Origin: a phage
Length of the DNA: 64,000 nt
Strand: one strand, 5' to 3'
Sequence record: PZ445429.1
Below are positions 22,277 to 64,000 of the stretch, one piece after another. The position numbers and the translations under genes were made by a program. Numbering within the stretch: the stretch's first letter is position 1; the number at the start of each line of letters is the position of its first letter. Below the pieces are notes generated by a model. The model saw only the letters and a list, made by a program, of their open reading frames with translations, was not told the DNA's origin and ran no database searches.

Positions 22277-22288
22277 ATTCATAAATTT

Positions 22289-22382: not shown

Positions 22383-22387
22383 AATTT

Positions 22388-22465: not shown

Positions 22466-22482
22466 ATTAATTAGGAGACTAT

Positions 22483-22668: not shown

Positions 22669-23008
22669 GATGGATATTTTTACTACTCCGGCAATAAACC
22701 TTTTAGGTGTTGGCTTGTTCCAAGCTACGGTGTATCGTACTGATGATTCTACTGATGTGGTAACGTTCATCGTACCTGAGTTCTTCCTAGAAAAGTTCTT
22801 TGAAGAGTTTGAGCAGTTCCGTGAAGAACACAATGCTCATTCCGATATGGAAGATCTAGCAGCTATGTTCCCTGTGGTTTACGGCTATATCTTTGAAGGT
22901 AATGGCCTAGATCTTAATAAATCTGAACTCGTTGAACTTAACTGGGGCATCAATTTTGAAGTTGGCTCTCCATTTCCTCGATATTTCCAGGGTTTAGAGA
23001 TTCGATAA
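22655..23008 (+). CDS. hypothetical protein (117 aa)
   Basis: ORF overlapping previous by 14 nt. Confidence 0.5.
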   Translation: MSEAKMDIFTTPAINLLGVGLFQATVYRTDDSTDVVTFIVPEFFLEKFFEEFEQFREEHNAHSDMEDLAAMFPVVYGYIFEGNGLDLNKSELVELNWGINFEVGSPFPRYFQGLEIR

Positions 23009-23016
23009 GATTACAT

Positions 23017-23093
23017 GGGGGTGTAATCGAATTGGCATAGGTACTGGACTTAAAATTCAGGTTTTGTGGGTTCGAATCCCACCACCCCTACCA
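23017..23093 (+). tRNA. tRNA with UAA anticodon (Leu-decoding by anticodon) but short variable loop
   Basis: acceptor GGGGGUG/CACCCCU, anticodon stem CUGGA/UUCAG loop CUUAAAA, T-loop UUCGAAU, discriminator A, CCA. Confidence 0.5.
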
Positions 23094-23244
23094 AATTAAG
23101 GAAATAAAATGAAAGCTAGTAAGAAAGCACTACGTAAATTTATGTACTGTCGTTTTCATAGCATCAAGACTTCAACTAATGGTACGACTTATGATCGCTA
23201 TGATCCTAAGTTTGGCTTACATTCTAAATAACTGGAGAAAACAA

Positions 23245-23451
23245 ATGGCTAATCCTGAAATTACGGCACAGCGCTTTATGCTAAAAGGTATTATTGCTGA
23301 AGCAGGCGTGACACAAGAAGTGGAAGATTTCCATAAGCAGTTCCTAAATATTCTCACTCAAGCCAAAGAGCTAGGAGAGAAAGAACATGGCGCGGCTATT
23401 ATGGCAATCACATTGGTTGGGCTTGATCTGGCAGAAGAATCAGGAGTTTAA
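23245..23451 (+). CDS. hypothetical protein (68 aa)
   Basis: ATG 23245 after RBS GGAGAAAA (track start 23179 lacks RBS). Confidence 0.45.
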   Translation: MANPEITAQRFMLKGIIAEAGVTQEVEDFHKQFLNILTQAKELGEKEHGAAIMAITLVGLDLAEESGV

Positions 23452-23541
23452 CTCCTCCAAGCAGAAATTTTAAAAATGTACTTGCCTTTTGCTTTAAATT
23501 TCTGGTATAATAGTTATATAAATTGATGAAGGAGTTAACGA

Positions 23542-23817
23542 ATGCAAAATCGTGTTATAGCAACTGGTATTGAAAGTGCAATCTGTAAATCCTGGGAAGG
23601 CTGGGAAGGTGAGATTGAATGGCTTTATTTCTACGATGTAGAACTTCTGCCGGAAGTTAAAGCTAAATGTGTTGAAGCTGGCATGGCTCCAGATGCAAAA
23701 GCTGATATTGATATTTCAATGTCTGAACTTAAAGGTCGTGTAATTACTGTTAGTGATGAGGGCGAAGAAGTTTTCGAACTTCCATTCTCCTTAACTGTCA
23801 CTCCTAAGTTCGATTAA
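23542..23817 (+). CDS. hypothetical protein (91 aa)
   Basis: promoter ~23481-23509, RBS GAAGGAG. Confidence 0.5.
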   Translation: MQNRVIATGIESAICKSWEGWEGEIEWLYFYDVELLPEVKAKCVEAGMAPDAKADIDISMSELKGRVITVSDEGEEVFELPFSLTVTPKFD

Positions 23818-24007
23818 CTAATACAGCACTTAGCAAGTTCTTTAAAATTTGACTTGCTCAGTGCCTTAAAACTTGATATAATAGTTATCTAATTTGGAAA
23901 ACATATCTGAATGAGAAGTAACTAAGCGAGTTGCTTTTAGGGGTAAAGTCAGGATTTCCTGAAATATTCCACTTTGAGTTTAACCGACTTACTTTTCATT
24001 CAAATAT

Positions 24008-24088
24008 GGGGGATTGGCTCAGTGGCGACGGCGCCTGGCTGTAGACCGGGTATATCACGCGGAGGTTCGAGTCCTCCATCCCCCACCA
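24008..24088 (+). tRNA. tRNA-Tyr (anticodon GUA), type II
   Basis: acceptor GGGGGAU/AUCCCCC, anticodon loop CUGUAGA, long variable arm, T-loop UUCGAGU, CCA. Confidence 0.6.
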
Positions 24089-24096
24089 AAATTAAT

Positions 24097-24171
24097 GCAC
24101 CTATCGTCTAATGGTTAGGACATCAGGATTTCAATCTGAGAATCGGAGTTCAATTCTCCGTGGGTGTGCCA
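24097..24171 (+). tRNA. tRNA-Glu (anticodon UUC)
   Basis: D-stem GUCU/GGAC, anticodon stem UCAGG/UCUGA loop AUUUCAA, T-loop UUCAAUU, CCA. Confidence 0.55.
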
Positions 24172-24180
24172 ATTAATAAT

Positions 24181-24251
24181 TGGGGTACGCATAGGTTGCT
24201 AGTGGGCCTCCAAAACCCATGAAAAGGTTTCGAATACCTTTACCCCTGCCA
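24181..24251 (+). tRNA. tRNA-Trp (anticodon CCA), compact
   Basis: anticodon loop CUCCAAA, T-stem AAGGU/ACCUU loop UUCGAAU, discriminator G, CCA; U1:U72 and C31:A39 mismatches. Confidence 0.5.
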
Positions 24252-24257
24252 ATATTT

Positions 24258-24332
24258 GCACCTTTAGCTGAGATGGATTAGCGCTTGCCTGAAGAGCTTG
24301 AGAGGTTGGATCGTTACCAACGGGGTGCACCA
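24258..24332 (+). tRNA. tRNA, anticodon unresolved (non-canonical T-loop AUCGUUA)
   Basis: acceptor GCACCUU/GGGGUGC plus CCA; anticodon arm could not be folded cleanly by hand. Confidence 0.35.
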
Positions 24333-24334
24333 AT

Positions 24335-24622
24335 TTGAAGGAGATGCTGATGCATCCTGAAAACTTCTTTATTTACTGTGCGGATAAGTCATTAAAACGC
24401 AGAATTAATAAAGTCTATCATTATCGTGCCAGTCAACAGCCTTATGTTTATGCTTTTGACGGAGATCACATCCCACTAGAACAATTGGCATGTGATTACA
24501 TGGTATTGAAGAACTTTGACGAGACAAAGATCTCAAGCGTTCATAATCGACAGAACCCGTTAACGTGGAAATATAAGAAGAAAAAGAAAGGCATCATATT
24601 TCTGAAAAATGTAGTTGCTTAA
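24335..24622 (+). CDS. hypothetical protein (95 aa)
   Basis: ORF immediately after tRNA block, RBS AAGGAG. Confidence 0.45.
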   Translation: MKEMLMHPENFFIYCADKSLKRRINKVYHYRASQQPYVYAFDGDHIPLEQLACDYMVLKNFDETKISSVHNRQNPLTWKYKKKKKGIIFLKNVVA

Positions 24623-24672
24623 CCACTTAAAGTTCTGTATAATTATTACATAAGTTGAACTGGAGAAGCAAC

Positions 24673-24897
24673 ATGACAGAACAAGAATTGAAAGAACGTA
24701 AGCTGGTAATGCTTCGCTTACTAAACATTTTCTCTGGTATGGATGGTGGTATTGACTTCATTCAACTACGCACTTTTGTAGAAGAAGCAGAAGGCGAGGC
24801 TATCACTAGGATTCTTAAACATATGGGTTTGTTACTAGATGCTGCTAATGTGGCTACTCAATATAAACTCAAAGATTTACCAGAGCGTGTTAAATGA
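24673..24897 (+). CDS. hypothetical protein (74 aa)
   Basis: ATG 24673 after RBS GGAGAAG. Confidence 0.45.
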   Translation: MTEQELKERKLVMLRLLNIFSGMDGGIDFIQLRTFVEEAEGEAITRILKHMGLLLDAANVATQYKLKDLPERVK

Positions 24898-25085
24898 AAA
24901 TGTTAGTTAAATTTAAGTGTTGTGGTTCTGAACATATTTTCACTCGTTATAGAGAGTTTAAGATGTGTGAGTGTGGTAAGTCAGGCTATGATGCTGGAGA
25001 TGGCTTTTATGCTAGATCTTTAGGACATTCTAAAGATCTAGAGTTTACTAATCTCGAAAAGCAAGATAAATCGACCGTTGGCTGA
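24894..25085 (+). CDS. small Cys-rich protein (63 aa)
   Basis: CCGSEH ... CECGKSG; 3' end overlaps start of tRNA-Cys. Confidence 0.4.
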   Translation: MKMLVKFKCCGSEHIFTRYREFKMCECGKSGYDAGDGFYARSLGHSKDLEFTNLEKQDKSTVG

Positions 25086-25147
25086 ATGGCTTAGGCGGAG
25101 GCCTGCAAAACCTCCTTATGTGAGTTCGAATCTCATGCGGTCGTCCA
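25072..25147 (+). tRNA. tRNA-Cys (anticodon GCA)
   Basis: acceptor CGACCGU/GCGGUCG, anticodon loop CUGCAAA, T-loop UUCGAAU, CCA; 5' end overlaps stop of ORF 24894-25085. Confidence 0.6.
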
Positions 25148-25153
25148 AATTTA

Positions 25154-25239
25154 GGGCCGTTGGCTGAATGGTTTAAGCGCCGGACTGTTAATCCGTATCC
25201 GCAAGGATAAAGTAGGTTCGACTCCTACACGGCCCGCCA
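25154..25239 (+). tRNA. type II-like tRNA, simplest fold gives anticodon GUU (Asn) with a 15-nt variable-arm hairpin
   Basis: acceptor GGGCCGU/ACGGCCC, anticodon loop CUGUUAA, variable hairpin AUCC-GCAA-GGAU, T-loop UUCGACU, CCA. Confidence 0.45.
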
Positions 25240-25266
25240 ATTTCATTAACAACTGAGGAAATAGAT

Positions 25267-25452
25267 ATGACAACTCGTGCAATTGCTCGACTAGAAGCTG
25301 ATCGTGATAATCTGATTAATAATATTAAGGTTCGTGGTAATATTATTAAGGCTCTGAAAGCTGAACTTCTTGAAGAACTTCAAGGTCAAGTAGAGCGTCG
25401 TGAAGCTCTAAAAGAGGTTGAGGAAGCTATCGAAAAACTCAAGGCTGAATAA
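25267..25452 (+). CDS. small coiled-coil protein (61 aa)
   Basis: RBS GAGGAAA. Confidence 0.45.
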   Translation: MTTRAIARLEADRDNLINNIKVRGNIIKALKAELLEELQGQVERREALKEVEEAIEKLKAE

Positions 25453-25455
25453 ATT

Positions 25456-26037
25456 ATGCACGGAATATCCTTACCCATTCCAGGGTTTGAGGAGTACTTA
25501 GTAAGTTTGGATGGGTTAGTATTTAGTATCAAATCAAACAAAATACTAACCCCAATAACCAGTAATTACGGATACTTATCTATACGTCTCCATAAAAATG
25601 GTCAACAGAGAAATACCGGTGTACATAGGATTTTAGCATGTGCATTTAAGAAATTACCAAGTCTAGACTCTGAACTAGAAGTTGACCATATTAACACAGA
25701 CATTACTTATTGGGGTCTTAATAACTTACAAGTGCTCACAAAAGAGCAGCATCTAGAAAAGACTTTAAAAGACAAAGGATTTAGTAAACTAAACCATGAT
25801 AATTGTTGTAAGGATTGTGGTAAAGCTATTTCTTTAAAAGCTGAAAAATGTCAGGAGTGCTCTTCACATAAACCAAAAGATATCTCTATAACTAAAGAAA
25901 TAATCGAGGTTACAGTAAGAGAGCTAGGCTGGTCAGGTGCAGGGAGAAAGTTAAGTTATTCAGATAATGGGTTGCGTAAAAGATACACTTCTTTAGGAGG
26001 CAATCCTAAAGAACTTAAAAAGTTAAAGGTACTATAG
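25456..26037 (+). CDS. HNH homing endonuclease with C-terminal zinc ribbon
   Basis: HRILACAF...EVDHINTD...NNLQVLTKEQH HNH core; CKDCGK...CQEC. Confidence 0.65.
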   Translation: MHGISLPIPGFEEYLVSLDGLVFSIKSNKILTPITSNYGYLSIRLHKNGQQRNTGVHRILACAFKKLPSLDSELEVDHINTDITYWGLNNLQVLTKEQHLEKTLKDKGFSKLNHDNCCKDCGKAISLKAEKCQECSSHKPKDISITKEIIEVTVRELGWSGAGRKLSYSDNGLRKRYTSLGGNPKELKKLKVL

Positions 26038-26102
26038 TCTAACGGTTAGGATACTCCCCTGTCACGGGAGAGGTAGGGTTTCGATTACCCTTAGTACCGC
26101 CA
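26028..26102 (+). tRNA. tRNA-Asp (anticodon GUC)
   Basis: acceptor GGUACUA/UAGUACC, anticodon stem CUCCC/GGGAG loop CUGUCAC, T-loop UUCGAUU, CCA. Confidence 0.7.
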
Positions 26103-26108
26103 AATTAT

Positions 26109-26185
26109 ACATCCATAGCTCAATTGGTTAGAGCTACCGCCTCTTAAGCGGTAGGTTCTAGGTTCAAGTCCTAGTGGGTGTACCA
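26109..26185 (+). tRNA. tRNA-Lys (anticodon CUU)
   Basis: anticodon stem ACCGC/GCGGU loop CUCUUAA, T-loop UUCAAGU, CCA. Confidence 0.65.
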
Positions 26186-26267
26186 AACATCAGAGCAGCG
26201 TGATGTACTGCAAAGACCCAAAGTCCGGGGTGGACTTCTTGATTCAAAGGAGCAGGCATTAATTATC

Positions 26268-26389
26268 ATTCTAGCGTGGTGGAGAGGGGACACCAGCTTG
26301 CCGAGGGTAGAAGCTCGTTCGATTCGAGTGAAAGAATGGTTCTCGTAAATCCGCACAAGTGATAGTAGGTTCAAGTCCTACCTAGATTG
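26268..26389 (+). ncRNA. tRNA-like element with ~45-nt insertion (interrupted or degenerate tRNA)
   Basis: terminal helix AUUCUAG/CUAGAUU (6 of 7 bp) encloses 122 nt ending in canonical T-arm GUAGG-UUCAAGU-CCUAC; no CCA. Confidence 0.25.
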
Positions 26390-26398
26390 ACTCATTAT

Positions 26399-26469
26399 GC
26401 GTTCGTAGTTAAAAGGTATAATTTTTGGTTGCCAACCAGAAGTTGAGGGTTCGATTCCCTCCGACCGCA
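26399..26469 (+). tRNA. tRNA-Gly (anticodon GCC), CCA not encoded
   Basis: D-stem GUUA/UAAU, anticodon stem UUUGG/CCAGA loop UUGCCAA, T-loop UUCGAUU; one acceptor mismatch. Confidence 0.5.
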
Positions 26470-26788
26470 CAAAATCTTTGTAGGTCGCGTCACTTATAGT
26501 GGGACTACAGGGTAAACAAGGCGATGAGTTTCCGGCCGGTTCTAGTCGCTGAAAATCCTCCCGACCAGGTAGGTGTAGGTAAACGAAAGTTTACTTATTG
26601 AGTAGGTTCCGATAGATCGGCGGGTCTATTCTGGCGTTTAAGAGAAGTCTCGCAAACTTCTTTGTCAGCCGTGGGGCTTGAACCCTCCAGGTGGCCTACG
26701 CAATAAGTAAATTTATTAAAAATTCATTTGCTATTTTGCTTAATTCTCTGTATAATATATCTTATAAAGTGTTGAGAAGGAAAGCAAA

Positions 26789-26986
26789 ATGAAAAAAGTT
26801 ATGTTACTATCTGTATTCTTACTCACTGGTTGCTTTAAATTTGATTCAACCATTAACAAGGAGTATGAATTTGCAAAAAATTTCTGTGGTGGAGAGAGTA
26901 AAATACAAAACTTCAGTATACACTCTACAATTCCTAGTACCATTTACTGCATAGATGGACGGAATATTAATATTCCACCACAATAA
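26789..26986 (+). CDS. small lipoprotein (65 aa)
   Basis: signal peptide with lipobox LLTGC; promoter ~26730-26758. Confidence 0.5.
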   Translation: MKKVMLLSVFLLTGCFKFDSTINKEYEFAKNFCGGESKIQNFSIHSTIPSTIYCIDGRNINIPPQ

Positions 26987-26995
26987 AAGAATATT

Positions 26996-27072
26996 CTCCG
27001 ATTAGCTCAATTGGCTAGAGTACACCGTTTGGGGCGGTGGGGTTGAAGGTTCGAGTCCTTCATTGGAGACCA
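26996..27072 (+). tRNA. tRNA-Pro (anticodon UGG)
   Basis: anticodon stem CACCG/CGGUG loop UUUGGGG, T-loop UUCGAGU, CCA. Confidence 0.65.
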
Positions 27073-27078
27073 AACAAT

Positions 27079-27156
27079 TGCGGGTTAGATCTTTGGTAGA
27101 GATCGCTAGTCTCATAAGCTAGAAAGAGGTAGGTTCGATTCCTACACCCGCTTCCA
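27079..27156 (+). tRNA. tRNA with CAU anticodon (second copy; Met/fMet/Ile-lysidine)
   Basis: anticodon stem CUAGU/GCUAG loop CUCAUAA, T-loop UUCGAUU, CCA. Confidence 0.6.
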
Positions 27157-27177
27157 ATTTAATAGAAGGATTTCGAA

Positions 27178-27342
27178 ATGAAATTATTTCGTTTAAAAGT
27201 AAGTGATCTACGTTCTAGCAAAGATCGTAAGAAGTATCCACTAGCCCATTACGGTAAAGATGAAAACGAAGTGATGGCGGAATTTGGTATTAATCATCCT
27301 TACTTAAAAGTCTACTCTATTAAAGAAGTCTATGCTAATTAA
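27178..27342 (+). CDS. small ORF (54 aa), not in track
   Basis: RBS AAGGA before ATG 27178. Confidence 0.35.
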   Translation: MKLFRLKVSDLRSSKDRKKYPLAHYGKDENEVMAEFGINHPYLKVYSIKEVYAN

Positions 27343-27805
27343 TAAAGTTTTAGCTGCCTTAAACCTTCCTGATAACTTCATTATAGATGATAAGCTCATA
27401 AGAGCTTATATGAGCAAATATAACGAAATTTCGGGTAAAGAAGGTAAGTTAAAAACTTCAGAGTTTAGATTCTGTTATCGAATGGCAGCCTTAAATCTCT
27501 TAAAGTATAAAAGGGAGCATAAAATACCTATAACGGAAGGTTTTGTATATGTAATTGGTAATCCAGCATGGCCAGGCATGTATAAAATAGGTATGACTAT
27601 AGATGTGAATGAGAGGTTAGCAAGTTATCAAACTTATTCACCTAATAGAGACTACAAGCTATACCATTTCAGATTTTCGTCGGATAAAAGACGTACAGAG
27701 AAAGAATTACATAATCTTCTTAAAGATTATAGAGTATCTGGAGAATGGTTTGAAGTACCTGTACTAGATGCTTTTAAATTATTAGTAGAAAAATTGGATT
27801 GCTAG
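27332..27805 (+). CDS. T5orf172-type (GIY-YIG-like) domain protein, putative homing endonuclease
   Basis: GFVYVIGNPAWPGMYKIGMT ... EWFEV pattern of GIY-YIG-like/T5orf172 family; 3' end overlaps tRNA start. Confidence 0.55.
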   Translation: MLINKVLAALNLPDNFIIDDKLIRAYMSKYNEISGKEGKLKTSEFRFCYRMAALNLLKYKREHKIPITEGFVYVIGNPAWPGMYKIGMTIDVNERLASYQTYSPNRDYKLYHFRFSSDKRRTEKELHNLLKDYRVSGEWFEVPVLDAFKLLVEKLDC

Positions 27806-27873
27806 CTCAACTGGATAAGAGTAGCGGACCTTTAATCCGTCAGTTCTGGGTTCGAATCCCAGGCAATCCACCA
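27796..27873 (+). tRNA. tRNA-Lys (anticodon UUU), C at position 33
   Basis: anticodon stem GCGGA/UCCGU loop CCUUUAA, T-loop UUCGAAU, CCA; 5' end overlaps stop of ORF 27332-27805. Confidence 0.5.
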
Positions 27874-27877
27874 AATT

Positions 27878-27951
27878 GCTCGGTTAGTTTAATGGGAGAA
27901 CCCCGTCTTTACACGGCGGTTGCGATAGTTCGATTCTATCACCGAGTACCA
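27878..27951 (+). tRNA. tRNA-Val (anticodon UAC)
   Basis: anticodon stem CCGUC/GGCGG loop UUUACAC, T-loop UUCGAUU, CCA. Confidence 0.6.
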
Positions 27952-27970
27952 ATTAACTCAAAATAAGGAA

Positions 27971-28330
27971 TTGCAAATGCAATTATCAAGCAAGGTTCAA
28001 GGCTATTTCGGGCATGTAACAATGGAGTTCGCTATCTCTAAAGGTTGGGACTTCGAACAAGATCTAGCTGAGTTCTACAAAGATATTGATCTGAACGTAC
28101 CATACATGGGACTCTCCACTGGTCAAGAGATCACAGAAGGCGATGTGTTCAAGGCAAGTCAAGGTGAGGTAACACCTAGTTTTGCCAAGTTCTGGTTAGG
28201 TATCACACTGAAAGAAGATGCACCAGAGGATGGTGTGGTTATGCAGAGTATGCACTCTGGAAGCTCTGATTACCTTTTCGTTAGTGACGTTAAGGAAATA
28301 CAAGAAATCGCTAAAAATGTACTTGCTTGA
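27971..28330 (+). CDS. hypothetical protein (119 aa)
   Basis: RBS AAGGAA. Confidence 0.5.
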   Translation: MQMQLSSKVQGYFGHVTMEFAISKGWDFEQDLAEFYKDIDLNVPYMGLSTGQEITEGDVFKASQGEVTPSFAKFWLGITLKEDAPEDGVVMQSMHSGSSDYLFVSDVKEIQEIAKNVLA

Positions 28331-28591
28331 TGCTTAATTTCTTGTTATAATATTTATATAAATTGATGAGGAGAAATCCTCATCAAAGTTCACTAAGGTA
28401 TTAGCTCGACCCAGGACTGGCTGCCAAAAAGCACGATCCCTACGACTCGGGAGAAGTTCTAGATTAGTCCACTAGATTCAGCGGCAACTGAATAGTGTAT
28501 CGGGTTTGTGAAGAGCGGTTATCCTCTACTGGCTAATGTCTGAGGGTAATACGCACACCGAGCTAATAGCCTTAGTAAACTTAAAGATTTT

Positions 28592-28665
28592 GGGGATATA
28601 GTTTAATGGTAGAACATCTGCTTTGCACGCAGAAGACGAGGGTTCAACTCCCTCTTTCTCCACCA
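28592..28665 (+). tRNA. tRNA-Ala (anticodon UGC)
   Basis: G3:U70 pair, anticodon stem UCUGC/GCAGA loop UUUGCAC, T-loop UUCAACU, CCA. Confidence 0.6.
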
Positions 28666-28671
28666 AAATTC

Positions 28672-28747
28672 GGGGTCATAGGTTATTTGGTTAAACTTAC
28701 TGCCTTGCAAGCAGTGGAACTCAGTTCAATTCTGAGTGACTCCACCA
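28672..28747 (+). tRNA. tRNA, anticodon UGC by simplest fold (second Ala-like copy)
   Basis: G3:U70 pair, anticodon stem ACUGC/GCAGU loop CUUGCAA, T-loop UUCAAUU, CCA. Confidence 0.45.
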
Positions 28748-28754
28748 AACAAAT

Positions 28755-28835
28755 GGGGATGTGGCGAAATTGGCAGACGCGCTAGATTTAGGTTCTAGTC
28801 TTCGGGTGTGGGTTCGAGTCCCTCCATCCCTACCA
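28755..28835 (+). tRNA. tRNA-Leu (anticodon UAG), type II
   Basis: anticodon stem CUAGA/UCUAG loop UUUAGGU, long variable arm, T-loop UUCGAGU, discriminator A, CCA. Confidence 0.6.
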
Positions 28836-29009
28836 AACATTGGATTAACTCATGATGAAAACTCCTATAACTGATATCTGGTTAGCTGTTAATACATTAA
28901 CTAAAGAGTATGTGTTTATAGAGTATGGTCAGAGGTATGACCAAAAGATGTATAATCTCATACTTCCAGTATCCGCTAATGAAGTTTATGATTTAATCCT
29001 GAGATCTAC

Positions 29010-29101
29010 GGAAGAGCAAATCGATAGGTGACGAAAACCGCTTGGAAAGTGGCTGACTTGTTAAAGCAGGCTTGAGAGTTCGAATCTCTCTTCTTCCGCC
29101 A
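29010..29101 (+). tRNA. tRNA-Ser (anticodon GGA by best fold), type II, 92 nt
   Basis: acceptor GGAAGAG/UUCUUCC, D-stem UCG/CGA, anticodon loop UUGGAAA, ~20-nt variable arm, T-loop UUCGAAU, CCA. Confidence 0.45.
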
Positions 29102-29108
29102 AACAACT

Positions 29109-29198
29109 GGAAGGTAGGACATAGTGGTATGTAACAGGTCTTGAAAACCTGCCCGCTGTAGCGATATGGTGATGGTTCGACTCCATTACCTTCCTCCA
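29109..29198 (+). tRNA. tRNA-Ser (anticodon UGA), type II
   Basis: acceptor GGAAGGU/ACCUUCC, anticodon stem CAGGU/ACCUG loop CUUGAAA, long variable arm, T-loop UUCGACU, CCA. Confidence 0.65.
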
Positions 29199-29214
29199 AC
29201 TAATAAGGAAAAAT

Positions 29215-29550
29215 ATGAGTAGTTATACTAAAATGTATATTGCAGTACTAGATGAAGCACCCGATTATATGGTACCAACTCTAGTTGCTCACTCTGTTTT
29301 AAACGCTCATATTAAGTTTCAGGATGACCCTAGGTATGGGGATTGGCTTGATAATTCTTTTAAGAAAGTAATTCTTAGGGTTAATAAAAAAGAATTTAAA
29401 AAGATCATATCTACCCTAGAGTGTTACGTAGGTTTTGAGCGCACTATCTGTAATGCAGAACCTAGCTGTTTAGTAGTTATGCCTATGAGTTCTGTTGATA
29501 TGCCAAATGTTTTAAAATTTGCTAGACTTTGGAAACCTAAAGATGTTTAG
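29215..29550 (+). CDS. hypothetical protein (111 aa)
   Basis: RBS AAGGAAAAA. Confidence 0.5.
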   Translation: MSSYTKMYIAVLDEAPDYMVPTLVAHSVLNAHIKFQDDPRYGDWLDNSFKKVILRVNKKEFKKIISTLECYVGFERTICNAEPSCLVVMPMSSVDMPNVLKFARLWKPKDV

Positions 29551-29938
29551 CAACTAGTATTCTTGAAGTATGCCGGAATCGGTAGACGGGGCTTCCTAAA
29601 GGGCGTAAGGGGAACATCCACTCCTCATAAGATACCCGAAAACGAGGCTGAGATAAATGGTCTATCTCATGAAGGTTCAAGTCCTTCTGCTTCTTGATAT
29701 TCAATGGCTCAAAGTGTAACGGTGCTATTTGATGTTCTTAGTAAGACTTTCCCGACATGCGTTCGGGAGTAAGCTGCTAAGGCTAGAGTAGAAGAGTTTC
29801 GGAGAGCCGCCACAATTGAGTATTACTAGAGAGCATTCGCAAGAAAGAATCAGGAGAAAGACCTGTGCGCAGAATGACTAACTTTGGTACCTTAGACGGC
29901 CAAATGGAGGACTGATCATCCCCTAATAGTATTCAATT

Positions 29939-30015
29939 GTGGCTATATCATAATTGGTTAATGATCCTGATTGTGAATCAGGCCTATGTGGATTCGAATT
30001 CCACTAGCCACCCCA
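29939..30015 (+). tRNA. tRNA-His (anticodon GUG)
   Basis: acceptor GUGGCUA/UAGCCAC, anticodon stem CCUGA/UCAGG loop UUGUGAA, T-loop UUCGAAU, discriminator C, CCA. Confidence 0.65.
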
Positions 30016-30021
30016 AATATT

Positions 30022-30096
30022 GCGTCCTTATTTCAACGGAAAGAATGTAAAGCTACGAACTTTACGATCGGGGTTCGATTCCCTGAGGATGCACCA
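30022..30096 (+). tRNA. tRNA-Arg (anticodon ACG)
   Basis: anticodon stem UAAAG/CUUUA loop CUACGAA, T-loop UUCGAUU, CCA. Confidence 0.65.
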
Positions 30097-30120
30097 ATTA
30101 ACTTAAACAGGAAATAAAAT

Positions 30121-30321
30121 ATGGCTGATTTCTGCAAAGAATGCTCTATTGATATGTGGGGAAGAGATACTGGTGATCTTTCTGGTCTGATTACAGAAGC
30201 CGAAGTTAAAGAAGGCTATGGTGCCGTTGTAATCTGTGAAGGTTGTGGCATTATCCGTGTTGATCATAATGGTAAACGTCTAGAAGAGCCTGATCCAATC
30301 GCCACGGTTTCTGTAGAATAA
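30121..30321 (+). CDS. small zinc-binding protein (66 aa)
   Basis: CKEC ... CEGC; RBS CAGGAAA. Confidence 0.45.
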   Translation: MADFCKECSIDMWGRDTGDLSGLITEAEVKEGYGAVVICEGCGIIRVDHNGKRLEEPDPIATVSVE

Positions 30322-30329
30322 AAAATTAT

Positions 30330-30405
30330 TGGAGTGTAGCTCAACTGGCAGAGCGACGGTTTCTGACACCGTAGGTTTCTAGTTCGATCCTAGACATTCC
30401 AGCCA
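30330..30405 (+). tRNA. tRNA-Gln (anticodon CUG)
   Basis: anticodon stem ACGGU/ACCGU loop UUCUGAC, T-loop UUCGAUC, discriminator G, CCA. Confidence 0.6.
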
Positions 30406-30411
30406 AACAAT

Positions 30412-30489
30412 TGGGGATTAGCTTAGCTTGGCCTAAAGCTTCGGCCTTTGAAGTCGAGATCATTGGTTCAAATCCAATATCCCCTGCCA
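30412..30489 (+). tRNA. tRNA-Gln (anticodon UUG)
   Basis: D-stem GCUU/AAGC, anticodon stem UCGGC/GUCGA loop CUUUGAA, T-loop UUCAAAU, discriminator G, CCA; U1:U72. Confidence 0.55.
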
Positions 30490-30497
30490 AACAATAA

Positions 30498-30573
30498 GCG
30501 GTTAAGCACACGGGTTGTGCCGCAGGCCTTCCAAGCCCCGCTGAGTAGGGTTCGATTCCCTCTAGCCGCTCCA
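30498..30573 (+). tRNA. tRNA, possibly Gly (anticodon UCC), weak anticodon stem
   Basis: acceptor GCGGUUA/UAGCCGC, candidate loop CUUCCAA, T-loop UUCGAUU, CCA. Confidence 0.4.
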
Positions 30574-30590
30574 ACTTTAAGGAAACATTT

Positions 30591-30812
30591 ATGCACGTTT
30601 TTGAGTTTCGTGATAAAAGTAACAATAAACGAGTTATTGTTATTGGAGAAACATACCTAGCATACGAACAAACTGACGGCTCTGTTATCTTGAATGATGA
30701 GAAAGCAAATTTTAGCTTTTATCCAGAAGAACCTTATGAAGAGTTTCGTACTAAGTTTCTTTTACCAGACTGGCTAGCAGTAGCCGAGCAACTAGAATCC
30801 GAAGATGGCTGA
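30591..30812 (+). CDS. hypothetical protein (73 aa)
   Basis: RBS AAGGAAA. Confidence 0.45.
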   Translation: MHVFEFRDKSNNKRVIVIGETYLAYEQTDGSVILNDEKANFSFYPEEPYEEFRTKFLLPDWLAVAEQLESEDG

Positions 30813-30969
30813 TAACCTGAAACTAAAGGTTGACAAACAAAAGAAACGTGTAGAGATTGAGCTTGGTGACGAACGCCTAGCACTATCCTTCGAGTTTCTT
30901 CAGCAGTTGGCGATGACAGTAATGTCTGATAAGTCTCCTGTATTTGAAAAAGAAATCCCGTTGAAATGA
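30805..30969 (+). CDS. small ORF (54 aa), not in track
   Basis: ATG overlapping previous stop (ATGGCTGA); ends just before tRNA-Thr. Confidence 0.3.
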   Translation: MADNLKLKVDKQKKRVEIELGDERLALSFEFLQQLAMTVMSDKSPVFEKEIPLK

Positions 30970-30979
30970 CGGGTTTATT

Positions 30980-31054
30980 GCTCCTAAAGCATTGCTGGCG
31001 ATGCAGTTGCCTTGTAAGCATCTGAACTGGGTTCGACTCCTGGTGGGAGCACCA
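30980..31054 (+). tRNA. tRNA-Thr (anticodon UGU)
   Basis: D-stem GCAU/AUGC, anticodon loop CUUGUAA, T-loop UUCGACU, CCA. Confidence 0.6.
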
Positions 31055-31128
31055 AATTTAAAAATTCATTTGCCTTCTCTCTTATTTCTTGTTATAATAT
31101 TTATATAAATTAATGAGAGGGAAACCAA

Positions 31129-31422
31129 ATGAAACGTTATCTTTCTGTCGTATTCCAAACGGGTGGTCAACGCTATACTTACGAATTTCCTGAGTCTTGG
31201 AAAATTAAAGAAGGTGATCAAGTTGTTGTATTAACACCTCGTGAAGGCTTCAAAGTAGTAACGGTTAAACAAGTCTTTCCAAAAGATCACGAACCATCTA
31301 AGTCTATTCAGTACAAGATGATTCACGGTCTGGTACGAAAAGTACCTAGAACAGAAGTCGAAGTAGATAAAACTGGGGAAGCTAAATACCAGTATACTTC
31401 TTACTTGGATGAAATGATGTAA
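31129..31422 (+). CDS. hypothetical protein (97 aa)
   Basis: promoter ~31068-31096, RBS GAGAGGGAAA. Confidence 0.5.
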   Translation: MKRYLSVVFQTGGQRYTYEFPESWKIKEGDQVVVLTPREGFKVVTVKQVFPKDHEPSKSIQYKMIHGLVRKVPRTEVEVDKTGEAKYQYTSYLDEMM

Positions 31423-31423
31423 T

Positions 31424-31499
31424 GCTCTGATAGTTCAACAGGTTAGAACAGGCGACCGATAATCGTCAAATCTTGGTTCGATCCCAAGTCGGAGTACCA
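31424..31499 (+). tRNA. tRNA-Ile (anticodon GAU)
   Basis: D-stem GUUC/GAAC, anticodon stem GGCGA/UCGUC loop CCGAUAA, T-loop UUCGAUC, CCA. Confidence 0.55.
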
Positions 31500-31505
31500 A
31501 ATTAT

Positions 31506-31581
31506 AGTTAGTTGGCAGAGTGGTTATGCACCTCCTTCATACGGAGCGACTACAGTGGTTCAACTCCACTACTAACTACCA
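31506..31581 (+). tRNA. tRNA with CAU anticodon (third copy; Met/fMet/Ile-lysidine)
   Basis: acceptor AGUUAGU/ACUAACU, anticodon loop UUCAUAC, T-loop UUCAACU, CCA. Confidence 0.55.
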
Positions 31582-56974: not shown

Positions 56975-58639
56975 ATGAATATTTCCGCAGAAAAACAAGC
57001 TCAAATTCTGAAAATGGCCGCAGATTTTAACTTCTACGGTAAGCGTTTACGCGCTACTAAATTGGAAGTTTGCGACGATATTTCAAAAGCTGTTTATGAT
57101 ACGCCGAAACATTCAACCGCAATTTGTGACTGGCTGGAAGCAAATAAGCCAGCGAAACCGAAAGCGGCAAAAGCTGAAAAGGCGATTAAAAATGATGATC
57201 GCCCCGAAGCGGCGGGAATTGTTTCTAGTACCGTTGAACAATGGGAAGTTAAATCCGGTCGCCGTTTTATTCTAACGTCGATTCAAAATAATACTTTCCC
57301 GCATAAAAACTTTTTAGCAAGTCTGGAAAAATTCGCTGAATATTGCGGCGCTGAATTGCTGATTAGTAAATTCATTTATAATAAAAATGGATTCCAGAAC
57401 GGGGAAGGGGCAAACGGTATTAAATACGATCCCGCATTTGATAAATATGTTTGTGATAAAAACGTATTTTTAAATAACCGCCGCTTTGCTTTCATGGCTG
57501 AAATTAACGTTTTACCAACGGCAGATTATCCGCTTTCAGGATTCGCAGAAACCGCCACGGCTTTAAATATCGAAGGTCTGGCAATTGGTCACGCAAAAAT
57601 TACCGCTGAAAGTGTTCCCGCGCTTAAAGGTGAAGTAGTGCGCCGTATGTATTCAACCGGAACGGCTACGCTTAAAAACTACATTCAGCAGAAAGCAGGT
57701 CAAAAAGCTGAGGCTTTACATAATTACGGCGCTTTGCTGGTGGAGTTCGACGACGACGGAGAATTTTATTGCCGCCAGCTTGAAACAATGGATGAAAGCG
57801 GAATGTTCTATGATTTGAATGTTTGCGCTATGCCTACCGGATGTTTTGAAACGTCCGATCATGTTCTAGGCTTGCAATATGGCGATATTCACGCCGAAAA
57901 ACTAGATGATGATTGCGCCGTCGCTTCATGGGCTAGTGAAAACAGCTTGCTTGATATTCTTAAACCGAAATATCAATTTATTCATGATGTGCATGATTTT
58001 ACATCCCGCAATCACCATAACCGCGCAAGTGGTGTATTCCTTGCTAAACAATACGCCGCCGGACGTGATAAAGTTATTGATGATCTTATCGATACGGGTC
58101 GCGTATTAGAGTCTATGGAGCGTGATTTCTCTCAAACAATCATTGTGGAATCTAACCATGATTTAGCTCTTTCACGCTGGCTTGATGATCGTAACGCTAA
58201 CATTAAAGATGATCCCGCAAACGCGGAATTGTATCACCGTCTAAACGCTGCGATTTACGCCGCTATTGCTGAAAAGGATGATACCTTTAACGTGCTAGAT
58301 TACGCCTTGCGGAACGTCGCAGGTTGTGAATTTAACGCTATTTTCCTGACTACTGACCAATCATTTAAAATCGCTGGCATTGAATGCGGCGTACATGGTC
58401 ACAATGGCATTAACGGCAGTCGGGGCAATCCTAAGCAGTTTAAAAAGTTGGGACGCCTTAACACTGGTCACACTCACACGGCTAGCATTTACGGCGGCGT
58501 TTATACCGCTGGCGTTGCTGGTAGTCTCGATATGGGTTACAACGTTGGCGCGTCAAGCTGGACGCAAACGCATTTAATTACATATGCAAACGGTCAACGT
58601 ACCTTGATTGATTTCAAAAATGGCAAATTCTTTGCCTAA
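56975..58639 (+). CDS. A1: A1-like pre-early protein with calcineurin-type metallophosphoesterase/nuclease motifs
   Basis: 554 aa (T5 A1 is ~556 aa); GDIHAEKLD, ESNHDL, GHNG, GHTHTA motifs; followed by A2-like and dmp-like genes. Confidence 0.55.
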   Translation: MNISAEKQAQILKMAADFNFYGKRLRATKLEVCDDISKAVYDTPKHSTAICDWLEANKPAKPKAAKAEKAIKNDDRPEAAGIVSSTVEQWEVKSGRRFILTSIQNNTFPHKNFLASLEKFAEYCGAELLISKFIYNKNGFQNGEGANGIKYDPAFDKYVCDKNVFLNNRRFAFMAEINVLPTADYPLSGFAETATALNIEGLAIGHAKITAESVPALKGEVVRRMYSTGTATLKNYIQQKAGQKAEALHNYGALLVEFDDDGEFYCRQLETMDESGMFYDLNVCAMPTGCFETSDHVLGLQYGDIHAEKLDDDCAVASWASENSLLDILKPKYQFIHDVHDFTSRNHHNRASGVFLAKQYAAGRDKVIDDLIDTGRVLESMERDFSQTIIVESNHDLALSRWLDDRNANIKDDPANAELYHRLNAAIYAAIAEKDDTFNVLDYALRNVAGCEFNAIFLTTDQSFKIAGIECGVHGHNGINGSRGNPKQFKKLGRLNTGHTHTASIYGGVYTAGVAGSLDMGYNVGASSWTQTHLITYANGQRTLIDFKNGKFFA

Positions 58640-58651
58640 TTAAATTTAATC

Positions 58652-58671
58652 AGCGGGGAATATTCCCCGCT
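58652..58671. terminator. palindrome AGCGGGGAATATTCCCCGCT
   Basis: 13 bp after stop of A1-like gene. Confidence 0.5.
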
Positions 58672-58714
58672 TATATTCCCGAAAAAGTTAATTAAATAAT
58701 CTGGAGTTTTAAAC

Positions 58715-59107
58715 ATGAAAAACCAAAACATTCCTTTTGATCGCGCTACTTCTTCCATCGTTCTAGTTTATTCTAATGGCGAGCGTTATCACGTTGAATC
58801 GGGTCATATTATTGATGAACTGCTAGACTTTAACGAGGCGCTACAGGTAACAACATTTGCATATATTACCGGTAAAGCGTCAAGCCATACAAAAGCAAAA
58901 GGCGTTTATATTGATACCGTAAAAGAGCAAACTGTTATTATTGACGCTGTAAAATCAGGTCTAGCGTTTGCAGTTGTCGCGCCATGCCCCGCTTGCCTTG
59001 ATAATGCTCTTATGTCTGCAAAGGTCTACACTTGCGCGGGGATTCGTTCCAGCGTATCAGGTGAGGATATTAGTTTTATCGCTGATGCTCTTGCTTTTGG
59101 TCTTTAA
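58715..59107 (+). CDS. A2-like pre-early protein (130 aa)
   Basis: size and position downstream of A1-like gene; hairpin terminator 59121-59147. Confidence 0.3.
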   Translation: MKNQNIPFDRATSSIVLVYSNGERYHVESGHIIDELLDFNEALQVTTFAYITGKASSHTKAKGVYIDTVKEQTVIIDAVKSGLAFAVVAPCPACLDNALMSAKVYTCAGIRSSVSGEDISFIADALAFGL

Positions 59108-59120
59108 TAGCTAACTTATT

Positions 59121-59147
59121 ATTGCCCGCTTATAAATAGCGGGCAAT
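59121..59147 (+). terminator. hairpin terminator after A2-like gene
   Basis: ATTGCCCGCT-TATAAAT-AGCGGGCAAT. Confidence 0.55.
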
Positions 59148-59186
59148 GCTGAATTAACTATACCCTTAAATGGAGAACGTAACAAA

Positions 59187-59921
59187 ATGAATCAAGTTAA
59201 AATGAATATTACCCATAATTTCCCGCATATTTCCCGCGTCATGATTTGGGATCTGGACGGCACAATCATTAATTCTTTCCATCGTGTAGCGCCTTGCTTT
59301 GATGATAACGGGAATTTAAATTTAAATAAGTATTCCCGCGAAGCCTGTAAACATGAATTAATTATGCAGGATTCTTTATTGCCGTTGGTTGAATATATGC
59401 GCCAATGTATGAGTGACGCAAATACATTAAACATTATTTGTACCGCTCGCCTTATGTCTAAAAGCGATTATTTTTATTTACGCAAACAAGGCCTGCGAGG
59501 GCGCGGAAATAGTAATATCCGCGTATTTTCCCGCGATACACTGCATAAATACTTTGAAGCTGATAAGGTTAGCGAAATATACCACAGCAAAGACGCTGTA
59601 TACAAAAGCTATTACTTTGAACTATTTAAACAGCTATATCCGAACGCTGATTTTACGATGATTGATGATCATAAAGGCGTATTATCGGCGGCGGCAAGTG
59701 CTGGGTTCAAAACACTGGACGCCCAAGCCGTTAACGATATCCTATCAATCGGCGTAGCATTGATCGGTGAAACCTTTATTGATGAATCGTTAGATGATGA
59801 TAATGATTATCAATTCCTAGCCGAACGTTTAAAAATGTGTTGGGAAGGTATGACCGAGGAAGAACGCGCGGAATATAGTACCACACCGCAACAATTCATT
59901 GATAAATTAAAAGTTGCATAA
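59187..59921 (+). CDS. dmp: HAD-family 5'-deoxyribonucleotidase (dmp-like)
   Basis: 244 aa; HAD motif I MIWDLDGTIINS; later DD motif. Confidence 0.55.
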   Translation: MNQVKMNITHNFPHISRVMIWDLDGTIINSFHRVAPCFDDNGNLNLNKYSREACKHELIMQDSLLPLVEYMRQCMSDANTLNIICTARLMSKSDYFYLRKQGLRGRGNSNIRVFSRDTLHKYFEADKVSEIYHSKDAVYKSYYFELFKQLYPNADFTMIDDHKGVLSAAASAGFKTLDAQAVNDILSIGVALIGETFIDESLDDDNDYQFLAERLKMCWEGMTEEERAEYSTTPQQFIDKLKVA

Positions 59922-60094: not shown

Positions 60095-60568
60095 TTAACC
60101 GTGGTTTGTGAACTCACCACATACTTTCTCACGTGCTTCCCTTATCGCACTTTCAGCTTCCTCAAGACTCTCGAAATAGGCCGAGATAAAATATTTGCCT
60201 TGGTGTCTACCGCGTGCTCTCCACTTCTTACGAGTGTTATCCCAGTATACTCCCTTAACTCCCGAGATATTGTTCTTAGATAGACGCTGATTCGCTAAGT
60301 TCTGCTCATGTGATGCTTTACGAAGATTATTCTTTCTATTATCTAGTCCCTCACAGTTTTTATGGTCTATGAGAGATTCTCCGGGATCTTCTCCGTAGAT
60401 GCACCACCAAGCTAGGCGATGCACTCTAAACTCTCCGAACTGTGGGTGACGATATATGAGATAACCTTCACTTTCCTTAGTATATCCTATAATAGGCAGG
60501 AATCGCCCCGTATCTGGATCGTATGAAAAACTACCAGCTATTTCATCAGGGATTTTCTTAAATATCAT
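60095..60568 (-). CDS. HNH homing endonuclease
   Basis: HRLAWWCIYGEDPGESLIDHKNCEGLDNRKNNLR ... GVKGVYW, paralogous to the 15403 HNH. Confidence 0.7.
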   Translation of the reverse strand: MIFKKIPDEIAGSFSYDPDTGRFLPIIGYTKESEGYLIYRHPQFGEFRVHRLAWWCIYGEDPGESLIDHKNCEGLDNRKNNLRKASHEQNLANQRLSKNNISGVKGVYWDNTRKKWRARGRHQGKYFISAYFESLEEAESAIREAREKVCGEFTNHG

Positions 60569-60913: not shown

Positions 60914-61099
60914 TTATAACCACCCCGCCATAGCTGCTAACCAAAAGAGTACAAAGATAAAGAATAACACAGTCCCGAATCCGAAACTATTTATCCAACT
61001 TTCGTACACTTCCCCGCGTCTGTTCTTTCTTCTGTTGTCGTCTGACATCTCTTTGCTTCTCCTGTAGTCTTGGTATTTGGAATACCATAGCAATTGCAT
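60914..61099 (-). CDS. small membrane protein (61 aa)
   Basis: C-terminal TM helix. Confidence 0.35.
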   Translation of the reverse strand: MQLLWYSKYQDYRRSKEMSDDNRRKNRRGEVYESWINSFGFGTVLFFIFVLFWLAAMAGWL

Positions 61100-61376
61100 G
61101 AACCATTATGACTGTCCCGATAAGATCCATTACTTCGTCGAAGCCGGATTCTTCTAGTAAGAAGGATGTTCCATCACGTCTTCTACTGTATCTTCTATGA
61201 CATCTTGAATGATTTCATCAATTGCATCATGTATTGCTTTTTATTCCTGGGATTTATTTCAAAGTTAACAGGTTCCTGAAAGGACTTTTCTTCATCTTGC
61301 ATTGTGTTTGCTACCTGTACCTCATCCCAGAAATAAAAATTTTTGTTTACTTCGAGATCTTTTTACTTTATACTAA

Positions 61377-61643
61377 TTACAAGTGACCAGATTGTTCTAG
61401 TTTAAATTTGCAATCACCATATTTGAGATCAAACTGTGACAAATCCCACCACCCAAACTTAGTGCGTAACTGAGTTTTAGGGAATCGGTAGCCCACAGTA
61501 CGTGCTTCTCTAATATCTAAAGCGTAGTGTTCTTCACCAACATGTCCATAAGACTTCACGTATGCCTTACAGAATGGCTCGGGAGCTGGTACACAACCAG
61601 TCAACACTACTGCTGCAACTACGATAGCTAGTAACTTTTTCAT
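61377..61643 (-). CDS. llp: Llp-like lipoprotein (receptor-blocking lytic-conversion lipoprotein, putative)
   Basis: 88 aa, signal peptide with lipobox LTGC; divergent from adjacent receptor-binding protein gene as for T5 llp/oad. Confidence 0.5.
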   Translation of the reverse strand: MKKLLAIVVAAVVLTGCVPAPEPFCKAYVKSYGHVGEEHYALDIREARTVGYRFPKTQLRTKFGWWDLSQFDLKYGDCKFKLEQSGHL

Positions 61644-61726
61644 AATCGTTCCTCTGTTTAATTTATAAATATATTATAGCAAAATAGAGGGATTTAAGCA
61701 AATACATTTTTAAAGAAGGAGATTGT

Positions 61727-63508
61727 ATGAGTTTTTTCGCAGGAAAATTTAGTGATGGTAAAACTGTATTATCTCTAAACGCTGCTAATGGTGGTGATAC
61801 TGGTGAGCACTATTCTCCAAATACTAATAGTATCTTCCACTCCGATATGCCTTTCGTCCTGGTTGATGGGACTTATGAAGCAGCCCTAGGTAATGCAGGT
61901 AATGGATACTTTGTTACTCAGATGCCTTGGGATATTATAAATATTAAATCCAATGATCCAGGTAGAGTTATATTAACTGCTATTGAGATAAACGGTACTC
62001 ATAGAGGATTCCTCAATGGTACTCAATCTCAGGTTGGCCAGTTCTTATCATTTTTTGAAGACCCACCACGTGCTGGTGCTGAATTATCTGTAACATCTGC
62101 TTTTGCGATCGGGGATAGTTTAGCTCATGGTACTTATATCTATAATGGTGGTCTTGGTCATGAGGAATCTATTGCTAGGCAAGGTTCTGGAGGCAGTTTA
62201 CTACAGTCCTCTGGTTTCCAGATCTTTAGACCTGGTGGTGTTCCTGCTGGTGAAGCCATTGCCAGAGCCTGGAGTCTTATGGGTTTTCCAACTGGTGTCT
62301 CTACTGTTCCTTTAAATGGTGGTAACGCTGATTATTGGGATCCTAACTGGCAGGCGCCTATTGGTTCTGCTGGTAGAGGCCATGATTGGTTTTATGTTTG
62401 TAGTTCTAATATTCGTGGCTTCGCAGGTAAAAAAGGCGTACTACCAGATAACGTAAACATTAACTACCAATCCCCCTCCTTTCCTACTAAAGTATACGTT
62501 TGCAGGGGTTCTACAACTAATATGGCTGCGCAAGCCACTAGAAAGGTATATGTACAGGACTGGTACAACGTTACGCCAACTAAGGTTATTTGGTATGTAC
62601 TAAATCTGCGCTATTCTAATGGTAGTATGGGAGTTTCTGGTAATCCATTTACCGGTTCAGATATCTTAATATCTCCATCTAACTTTACTATTAAAGGTGT
62701 TAGCCTACCAAATACAGGCTATAAATTTATTAACCAGAATGCTTTCGGAAACTTAGGCTATCGCCCTGATATGGAGTATGTTGGTAATAACGCTGCGTAT
62801 ACCGGAGTTTTTGGTGATAATACTGCACGATGTGAATTTATCGGCTCTAGTAATGGCGGATTGTGGTCTCCTGTTAACTATGGGGGTGCAGCTTCTCAAA
62901 TTAGCTTATATAAATTTGGTGTAGGTAAACAATGGTATGTAGATACTAATACCAACTCCATTGGTAATGAACATGGACCTGTATGGAGTCCTAGTACTGT
63001 ACCCCTCAGGTTATTCCCAGGCAACGTTGCAAGTACTTATGTAGGGGATGATATAACTCCATCCTACCCTGGTGCTGGTGACTTCTACACACCTTTGGCC
63101 ACAGTTTGGTTGGGATTACCAAATGCTCACTCTACTGTTATATTAACTACTGAAGTTATTATGGGTAATCTTAATACTGCTGGAATGCCCGTGCGTACTT
63201 ATGGTGGTAGTGCTTGGCAGGTACAAGGTAGACGTCAACAAAGTTATACAGCTGGTGATGGTGTATTCCATCAGATTCTTACTCTGCCACCTGGCTATCT
63301 AGTACCATATCACAGTACAACTTCCTATAGCTATACCCAAACGTGGGCTAGTAGGCCTGATGAGTTTGCTTTCCGTAGGAACGGATATATTTATACTATT
63401 AAAAACCTTGGTAATGGCAACGTTGAATTGGGTGTTATCATTCACGCTGCGGAAGCGGCGGCTGTTTTCTTGCCAAGACTACGTGTAACAGTTCAACGCC
63501 TAACCTAA
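61727..63508 (+). CDS. receptor-binding tail protein (pb5/Oad-like, putative)
   Basis: 593 aa Gly/Asn/Ser/Thr/Tyr-rich beta-type protein adjacent to llp-like gene; RBS AAGGAG. Confidence 0.45.
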
Positions 63509-63518: not shown

Positions 63519-64000
63519 ATGGCAAATGATGTATTAGTTCCCGATCTCATGTCTCCTGAGGGCATGGATGTTATTGAAGCCTATTTACAGTGCAGTAGTG
63601 ATGTTCCTGCCGCCGCTCGTAGTCTTGGAATGTCCGAGATTGCATTTCGTGATATAATGAATCGTGGGGAAGTTAAAAACTATCTCAACGATATCTTTAT
63701 GGAAAGTGGCTTCCGTAATCGTGACCGCTTATTCGGAGTTCTTGATGAAGTTATCAAGCGCAAGTTGGAAGAACTCGAAGAAACTGGCATGGGTTCTGAC
63801 CAGGATATCATGGATATTCTCTGGAAGGCGCACAAGATGAAAATGGAAGAAATGAAAATGATGGTAGAACTGGAGAAAGTGAAGGCAGCAGCCCGTACTC
63901 CAGCTAACCAGACTAACATTCAGAATAATATTATTGCTGGAAGTGGTGACGAAAACTATATGAATCTTATTACCGCTCTAGCAGGAGGAGGTAAGAGATA
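63519..64000 (+). CDS. hypothetical protein with N-terminal helix-turn-helix (possible terminase small subunit); 5' part only
   Basis: RBS AAGGAGG then ATG 63519; frame open to window end. Confidence 0.3.

Follow-up and report, generated by a model that had tools for sequence, protein, structure and literature searches.

The BtuB-type receptor-recognition module of T5-like phages has been known since the studies of BF23 (Mondigler 1996, 2006) and EPS7 (Hong 2008), as cited in PMC8624392 and PMC10644984. In BF23, whose receptor-binding protein (RBP) Hrs (Oad) and lipoprotein Llp form the founding pair, the receptor is BtuB, which is blocked by BF23 Llp (PMC10644984; PMC4728585). In T5 the RBP is pb5 and the receptor is FhuA, not BtuB (pb5/Llp structures in PDB 8B14, 8A8C and 8A60). 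Here we compare with these systems a locus in the window, that is, the whole 64,000-nucleotide stretch of phage DNA analysed (record PZ445429.1), in which a gene for an 88-amino-acid (aa) lipoprotein lies next to one for a 593-aa tail protein. The two genes very probably constitute an ordinary T5-like BtuB-type pair, comprising an RBP that would bind BtuB and a lipoprotein that would block it. The module is already known and there is nothing new in it: it is the commonest type among T5-like phages (PMC8594841) and is annotated as such in many GenBank records. The features of the locus are as follows.

61377..61643, minus strand: llp, predicted precursor of a receptor-blocking (superinfection exclusion) lipoprotein; 88-aa open reading frame (ORF) with an ATG start, assigned from phrog_1119 and homologues
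61644..61726, no strand: divergent regulatory region of 83 bp with the Shine-Dalgarno sites of both genes, read directly from the sequence
61727..63508, plus strand: predicted pb5-type (Oad/Hrs) receptor-binding tail-tip protein of the BtuB clade; 593-aa ORF with an ATG start, assigned from phrog_4815, pb5 in the PDB, AlphaFold2 and Foldseek

The ORF list and the sequence itself bear out the head-to-head arrangement described in the initial annotation. Each gene is preceded by a Shine-Dalgarno site, AAGGAG 5 nt ahead of the ATG of the RBP gene and GAGGA 6 nt ahead of that of llp. The region 61200-63600 is covered over at least 80% of its length in 218 records of the phage collection, and its DNA is 98-99.8% identical to that of many Salmonella and Escherichia T5-like phages, in which the genes are labelled 'receptor-binding tail protein', 'receptor-blocking protein' and 'terminase small subunit'. 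Since 218 records cover the locus and the two proteins match phrog_4815 and phrog_1119, both ORFs are judged to be real genes and not chance ORFs. The position of the RBP gene, upstream of the terminase genes and divergent from a small lipoprotein gene, is shared with bombadil, BF23, T5, DT57C and phiR2-01; the order RBP, small terminase (terS), large terminase (terL) is identically annotated in the first four of these, and gene order and orientation are the same in Escherichia phage TrudiRoth (Bas30, of the BASEL collection) as in Salmonella phage bombadil (Epseptimavirus).

The 593-aa protein is matched from end to end by phrog_4815 (E=3e-281; named 'receptor binding tail protein'), and a phmmer search of the PDB aligned it with the T5 pb5 chains 8b14_B and 8a8c_B (E=6.4e-46) in two stretches, residues 1-187 and 273-593. 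This is supported by its AlphaFold2 model, built on 30 homologues, which has a mean predicted local distance difference test score (pLDDT) of 90.7 and a predicted template modelling score (pTM) of 0.90. In a Foldseek comparison the pb5 chains were the only significant PDB match to this model (E=3.5e-31 and 1.6e-27, probability 1.00, template modelling (TM) score 0.62-0.69), the next being at E=0.012. The initial annotation held that the pair mirrors T5 llp/oad, a view that a complete lack of similarity to any pb5-type protein would have contradicted; similarity was found in both sequence and fold, and thus the protein is, as judged from alignment and model, a pb5-type RBP. Its description as Gly/Asn/Tyr-rich also stands in graded form, the protein being clearly rich in Gly (12.6%) and moderately enriched in Asn (7.4%) and Tyr (5.2%). 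A Pfam scan of both proteins gave nothing useful beyond a weak LPAM_1 hit in the lipoprotein and chance matches; the family PF26860, which is attached to every RBP homologue in precomputed tables, is absent from the Pfam copy scanned. The length given for T5 pb5 in the initial annotation, about 640 aa, is correct (640 aa, 47 residues more than here), and RBPs of the BtuB clade span 586-595 aa; the 47-residue shortfall is a real hallmark of that clade. In two records, SE3 (MK770410) and SE8 (MK972716), the names of the two genes have been exchanged: the homologue of the 593-aa RBP is called 'receptor-blocking protein', the label that belongs to the adjoining lipoprotein gene.

Among Markadamsvirinae, the RBPs group into three clusters, from which the terminal receptor can be predicted (BtuB, FhuA or FepA), and BtuB is the target of nearly all of them (PMC8594841). 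For TrudiRoth, dependence on btuB was shown by knockout and was fully complemented (PMC8594841). BtuB is also named as the receptor of EPS7, SPC35, DT57C, BF23 and phiR2-01 in statements carried by PMC8624392 and PMC10644984, and PMC12980165 includes S114, S133, S126 and S116 among the phages that bind BtuB. The identity of the RBP in the window to proteins with assigned receptors, and to that of bombadil, is given below.

bombadil: 100% (global, as are all values below except that for EPS7)
TrudiRoth (Bas30): 97.1%; BtuB, tested
EPS7: 94.2% (tblastn, three pieces); BtuB
BF23: 75.6%; BtuB
DT57C: 64.9%; BtuB
phiR2-01: 59.4%; BtuB
T5: 31.1%; FhuA
S131: 30.9%; FhuA, proposed
S124: 29.7%; FepA, proposed

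The value for EPS7 was taken from tblastn, the 52% identity obtained by direct translation being an artefact of frame breaks. Identity to the S116 protein is 95.8%, and the RBP is 99.8% identical in several further phages. By these comparisons the RBP clusters with BtuB-type proteins and not with the FhuA or FepA types. Because the RBP is 97.1% and the lipoprotein 100% identical to those of BtuB-dependent TrudiRoth, there is a high probability that the receptor of this phage is BtuB. This fits the earlier suggestion that the shorter RBP might signal a receptor other than that of T5, with a lipoprotein matched to it, and puts a predicted name to that receptor. The frame breaks themselves lie in the EPS7 record (CP000917, 1453..3234), where the translation of the RBP gene contains stops and no coding sequence is annotated; they probably stem from errors of sequencing in what is the reference record for the type phage of the genus.

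The lipoprotein gene encodes the N-terminus MKKLLAIVVAAVVLTGC, in which residues 1-16 form a signal peptide ending in an L-T-G-C lipobox, with Cys17 as the predicted lipidation site. Cleavage would fall between MKKLLAIVVAAVVLTG and this cysteine, and both Gly16 and Cys17 are invariant in 11 homologues; the LPAM_1 match in Pfam is weak (E=0.0025, 18.6 bits against a cut-off of 20 bits). Cys25 and Cys78, at mature positions 9 and 62, are likewise invariant among these homologues and are placed such that they could form an intramolecular disulphide like the Cys11-Cys58 bond of T5 Llp, which joins the termini of that protein (PMC9586334). The lipoprotein is 100% identical to proteins labelled 'receptor-blocking' or 'superinfection exclusion' in bombadil, TrudiRoth, GreteKellenberger, Stitch, S133 and many other phages, and over its full length it is 68.2% identical to BF23 Llp and 67.0% to DT57C Llp. 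In the comparison with BF23 Llp the N-terminal half is divergent and the C-terminal 30 residues are nearly identical.

Blocking has been tested in these close relatives. Cloned DT57C llp, which differs from BF23 llp by one residue, caused a more than 100-fold drop in the plating of BF23 and DT57C and had no effect on T5 (PMC4728585), and exclusion of more than 10^6-fold by BF23 llp was reported by Mondigler et al. 2006 as cited in PMC4728585. BtuB-specific blocking is thus a tested property of the lipoprotein family that this allele presumably shares. The lipoprotein also matches phrog_1119, 'Cor superinfection exclusion protein' (E=1.2e-23). The Cor proteins of T1, phi80 and their relatives, which belong to this cluster, are likewise small outer-membrane lipoproteins that inactivate the TonB-dependent receptor of their own phage; they differ in acting on FhuA and in being encoded in unrelated siphoviruses. 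However, phrog_1119 is a remote-homology cluster that evidently includes BtuB-type sequences, and the match is no proof of close kinship with Cor. When 1.84 billion representative proteins were searched with a profile of the Llp family, the only matches were the family itself, three long repetitive proteins that look like chance matches and one marginal 86-aa lipoprotein; as far as sequence searches tell, the BtuB-type Llp family is a narrow one. The 86-aa protein, P0056 (E=5.5e-4), is a remote relative with the matching three-cysteine pattern MKAIMVATVLLLAGC...PIC...GTC.

A separate observation concerns the FepA-type Salmonella phage S124 (MH370375, 800..1500), in which no lipoprotein ORF adjoins the RBP gene and the annotated 103-aa 'receptor blocking protein' has neither signal peptide nor lipobox. 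The homologous part of the window is broken up into two small minus-strand ORFs, at 61195..61302 (35 aa) and 60987..61130 (47 aa). Either the FepA-type module has no adjoining Llp, or the S124 annotation is wrong.

In the proposed mechanism, the 593-aa protein, made late, would sit at the tip of the central, straight tail fibre, bound to pb4 as expected of a pb5-type protein, and would bind the TonB-dependent vitamin B12 transporter BtuB, which would commit the phage to DNA ejection. The lipoprotein would be expressed from the divergent promoter, early in infection by analogy with T5 and BF23, and would be exported, lipidated at Cys17 and anchored in the inner leaflet of the outer membrane. 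Under the +2 sorting rule of Escherichia coli, lipoproteins stay in the inner membrane when Asp follows the lipid-bearing cysteine. Retention in the inner membrane is not expected here, because the residue after the lipid cysteine is Val and not Asp. By binding BtuB the lipoprotein would make it unusable for this and other BtuB-dependent phages, so that superinfection would be prevented and progeny spared inactivation on cell debris. The module lets the terminal receptor be predicted as BtuB from sequence alone, which bears on the design of phage cocktails, since a btuB mutant would show cross-resistance to every phage of the BtuB class. The lipoprotein would also be a ready reagent with which to block BtuB.

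Several points weigh against assigning this phage to the ordinary BtuB type. The experimental evidence comes from relatives, whose behaviour this exact phage is taken to share, and the best database match of the whole window reaches only about 96% identity, across 24 kb. The RBP differs from that of TrudiRoth by 17 substitutions, nine of which lie at residues 245-271, within the most variable block of BtuB-type RBPs (residues 151-270, which holds most of the 17), and a second cluster is found at residues 25-27. These may reflect a fine shift in specificity, e.g. to BtuB loop variants of particular hosts. In addition, a strict consensus promoter scan calls no promoter in the 83-bp intergenic region, where the -35 element of llp has only three of six consensus positions.

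Read by eye, the llp strand carries a weak -35 element TTGCTT (61701..61696), a 17-nt spacer and a perfect extended -10 element TGCTATAAT (TATAAT at 61678..61673). The 83-bp spacer aligns by eye with the intergenic regions of BF23 and T5, where divergent promoters are annotated, in T5 as unqualified features and in BF23 as Sigma70Pred predictions, with a hypothetical early promoter directed towards llp and a hypothetical late one towards the RBP gene. We therefore infer a putative llp promoter at this position from the sequence.

The lipoprotein may act from the periplasm, jamming the plug and refolding the extracellular loops, by analogy with T5 Llp and FhuA, the only pair for which the mechanism has been solved. 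We see the chances as evenly divided on the fuller proposal that BtuB-type Llp and T5 Llp are far-diverged true homologues, both SH3-like β-barrels with a disulphide between the N- and C-terminal regions, and that BtuB is inactivated through periplasmic plug-jamming and reverse allostery. If this is true, it would explain the constancy of the lipoprotein beside a drifting RBP, with the blocker acting on the conserved periplasmic face of BtuB and the RBP tracking its variable extracellular loops. Tentatively, and with clearly lower probability, the lipoprotein may instead block BtuB in a manner unlike that of T5 Llp, by occluding its surface or impairing its insertion, the two Llp types then being unrelated analogues.

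The two types are called non-homologous in the literature (PMC10644984; PMC4728585), and mature T5 Llp is without significant sequence similarity to the lipoprotein of the window. Single-sequence phmmer and profile hmmsearch comparisons of this lipoprotein with the PDB gave no match at E<=10. A full-length hhalign comparison with T5 Llp returned a probability of 93%, but the match was set aside, being confined to residues 1-29, the signal peptide region and first cysteine; alignment of the mature domains was not significant (E=0.13 local, E=0.86 global). Sequence homology to T5 Llp is therefore not claimed, since the match vanishes once the signal peptides are removed.

Against a different mode of blocking stands the colinear architecture common to both types, with a lipid cysteine, a second cysteine 8-10 residues on, a third near the C-terminus and a conserved Trp. 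Both types also match phrog_1119 over their full length, which is weak support for a relationship, the profile probably containing both. In the fold comparison made with the AlphaFold2 model of the lipoprotein (pLDDT 82.7), the top-ranked PDB match was T5 Llp, and second among the viral matches came a superinfection exclusion protein from a different coliphage (E=2e-3). Those who solved the FhuA-Llp structure further argue that its mechanism should extend to TonB-dependent transporters in general (PMC9586334). That the two Llp types have a fold and an origin in common is plausible but unproven.

It is very unlikely that the locus is a pb5/Llp-type module aimed at another TonB-dependent transporter, such as FhuA, FepA or one not yet described, its specificity having been switched by the 17 substitutions relative to TrudiRoth. 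Their concentration in the most variable block of the RBP, and the mosaic nature of RBPs within the BtuB clade (PMC4728585), would fit such a switch; however, DT57C (65% identity) and phiR2-01 (59%) still use BtuB, so that greater divergence than this keeps the receptor. Identity to the FhuA- and FepA-type RBPs is only about 30%, the lipoprotein is the same as that of BtuB-dependent TrudiRoth, and the RBP is a common allele, given its identical or nearly identical copies in bombadil and several other phages.

Still less credible is another role for the lipoprotein, as an o-spanin-like lysis component or a moron unrelated to BtuB that neighbours the RBP gene by chance: o-spanins are indeed among the small phage lipoproteins, the phiR2-01 homologue weakly matches an Rz-like spanin PHROG (E=0.014, confined to residues 1-17) and went undetected by proteomics (PMC8624392), and blocking by the present allele is presumed from its relatives, but the spanin match spans the signal peptide alone, the full-length identity of 67-68% is to the BF23/DT57C Llp, whose cloned gene confers exclusion specific to BtuB phages (PMC4728585), and the divergent position beside the RBP gene is kept in T5, BF23, DT57C, phiR2-01 and TrudiRoth. 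A spanin function was rejected on these counts.

In vB_STy-RN29 and BD13 the lipoprotein is 99-100% identical to that of the window and the RBP 84-91%, whereas in NBSal003 the RBP is 82% identical and Llp only 67%. These differing identities point to recombination between the RBP and llp genes, as noted earlier for DT57C (PMC4728585). Such swaps would be workable because any BtuB blocker fits any BtuB binder.

A second level of modularity lies within the RBP. Block-wise comparison shows that residues 1-60 (61727..61906) are 67-77% identical to FepA-type S124, a phage of the same genus, and only 33-53% identical to T5 pb5; past residue 60 identity falls to approximately 20-30% with both. It appears that the N-terminus follows the phage backbone, and everything after it the receptor type; attachment to the tail fibre is presumably the task of the N-terminus.

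The backbone in question is of the Epseptimavirus type, the last 24 kb of the window being about 94-96% identical to Salmonella and Escherichia phages of this type. BF23, with the same orientation, intergenic region and terminase neighbours, has a Tequintavirus backbone and an RBP of 595 aa against 593 aa here, and T5 shares with the window the RBP fold, the divergent layout by the terminase genes and a three-cysteine lipoprotein. The window comes from the genome of a T5-like phage and holds the pre-early genes A1 and dmp at 56975..59921. It also has 28 tRNA genes, clustered at 15.9-31.6 kb (15923..31581, plus strand), as is typical of T5-like phages. Among the tRNA genes ARAGORN calls a tRNA-SeC with anticodon TCA at 15923..15996, which may be suppressor-like or miscalled. 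Downstream of the RBP gene, the locus continues with the small terminase gene.

63519..64000, plus strand: first part of the gene for the small terminase subunit, cut off by the end of the window; assigned from the sequence and the layout in relatives

This ORF begins 10 bp past the RBP stop codon and has its own AAGGAGG; Pfam gave no match for the fragment in the window. At 63445..63470 on the plus strand, inside the final 60 bp of the RBP gene and shortly ahead of the terminase gene, there is a GC-rich hairpin that leads into a T-run (CGCTGCGGAAGCGGCG GCTGTTTTCT); it may be fortuitous, or it may have an attenuating role between the RBP gene and terS.

On the other side of the locus, a 157-aa ORF resembling homing endonucleases, with HNH_3 and AP2 domains, lies at 60095..60568 (minus strand) between dmp and the gene for an 81-aa membrane protein, at a site that corresponds to the terminal repeat boundary in BF23 and T5. 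This extra gene, approximately 0.8 kb beyond llp, is absent from bombadil, and of 278 matching phage records only 13 cover at least 80% of the region 59900-61400. The gene has the look of a mobile element inserted sporadically, and in some RefSeq records it is already labelled as an HNH endonuclease. Finally, the same Salmonella/E. coli-type module occurs in several records whose names are those of Listeria, Campylobacter or Klebsiella phages, which suggests contaminated or mislabelled deposits.

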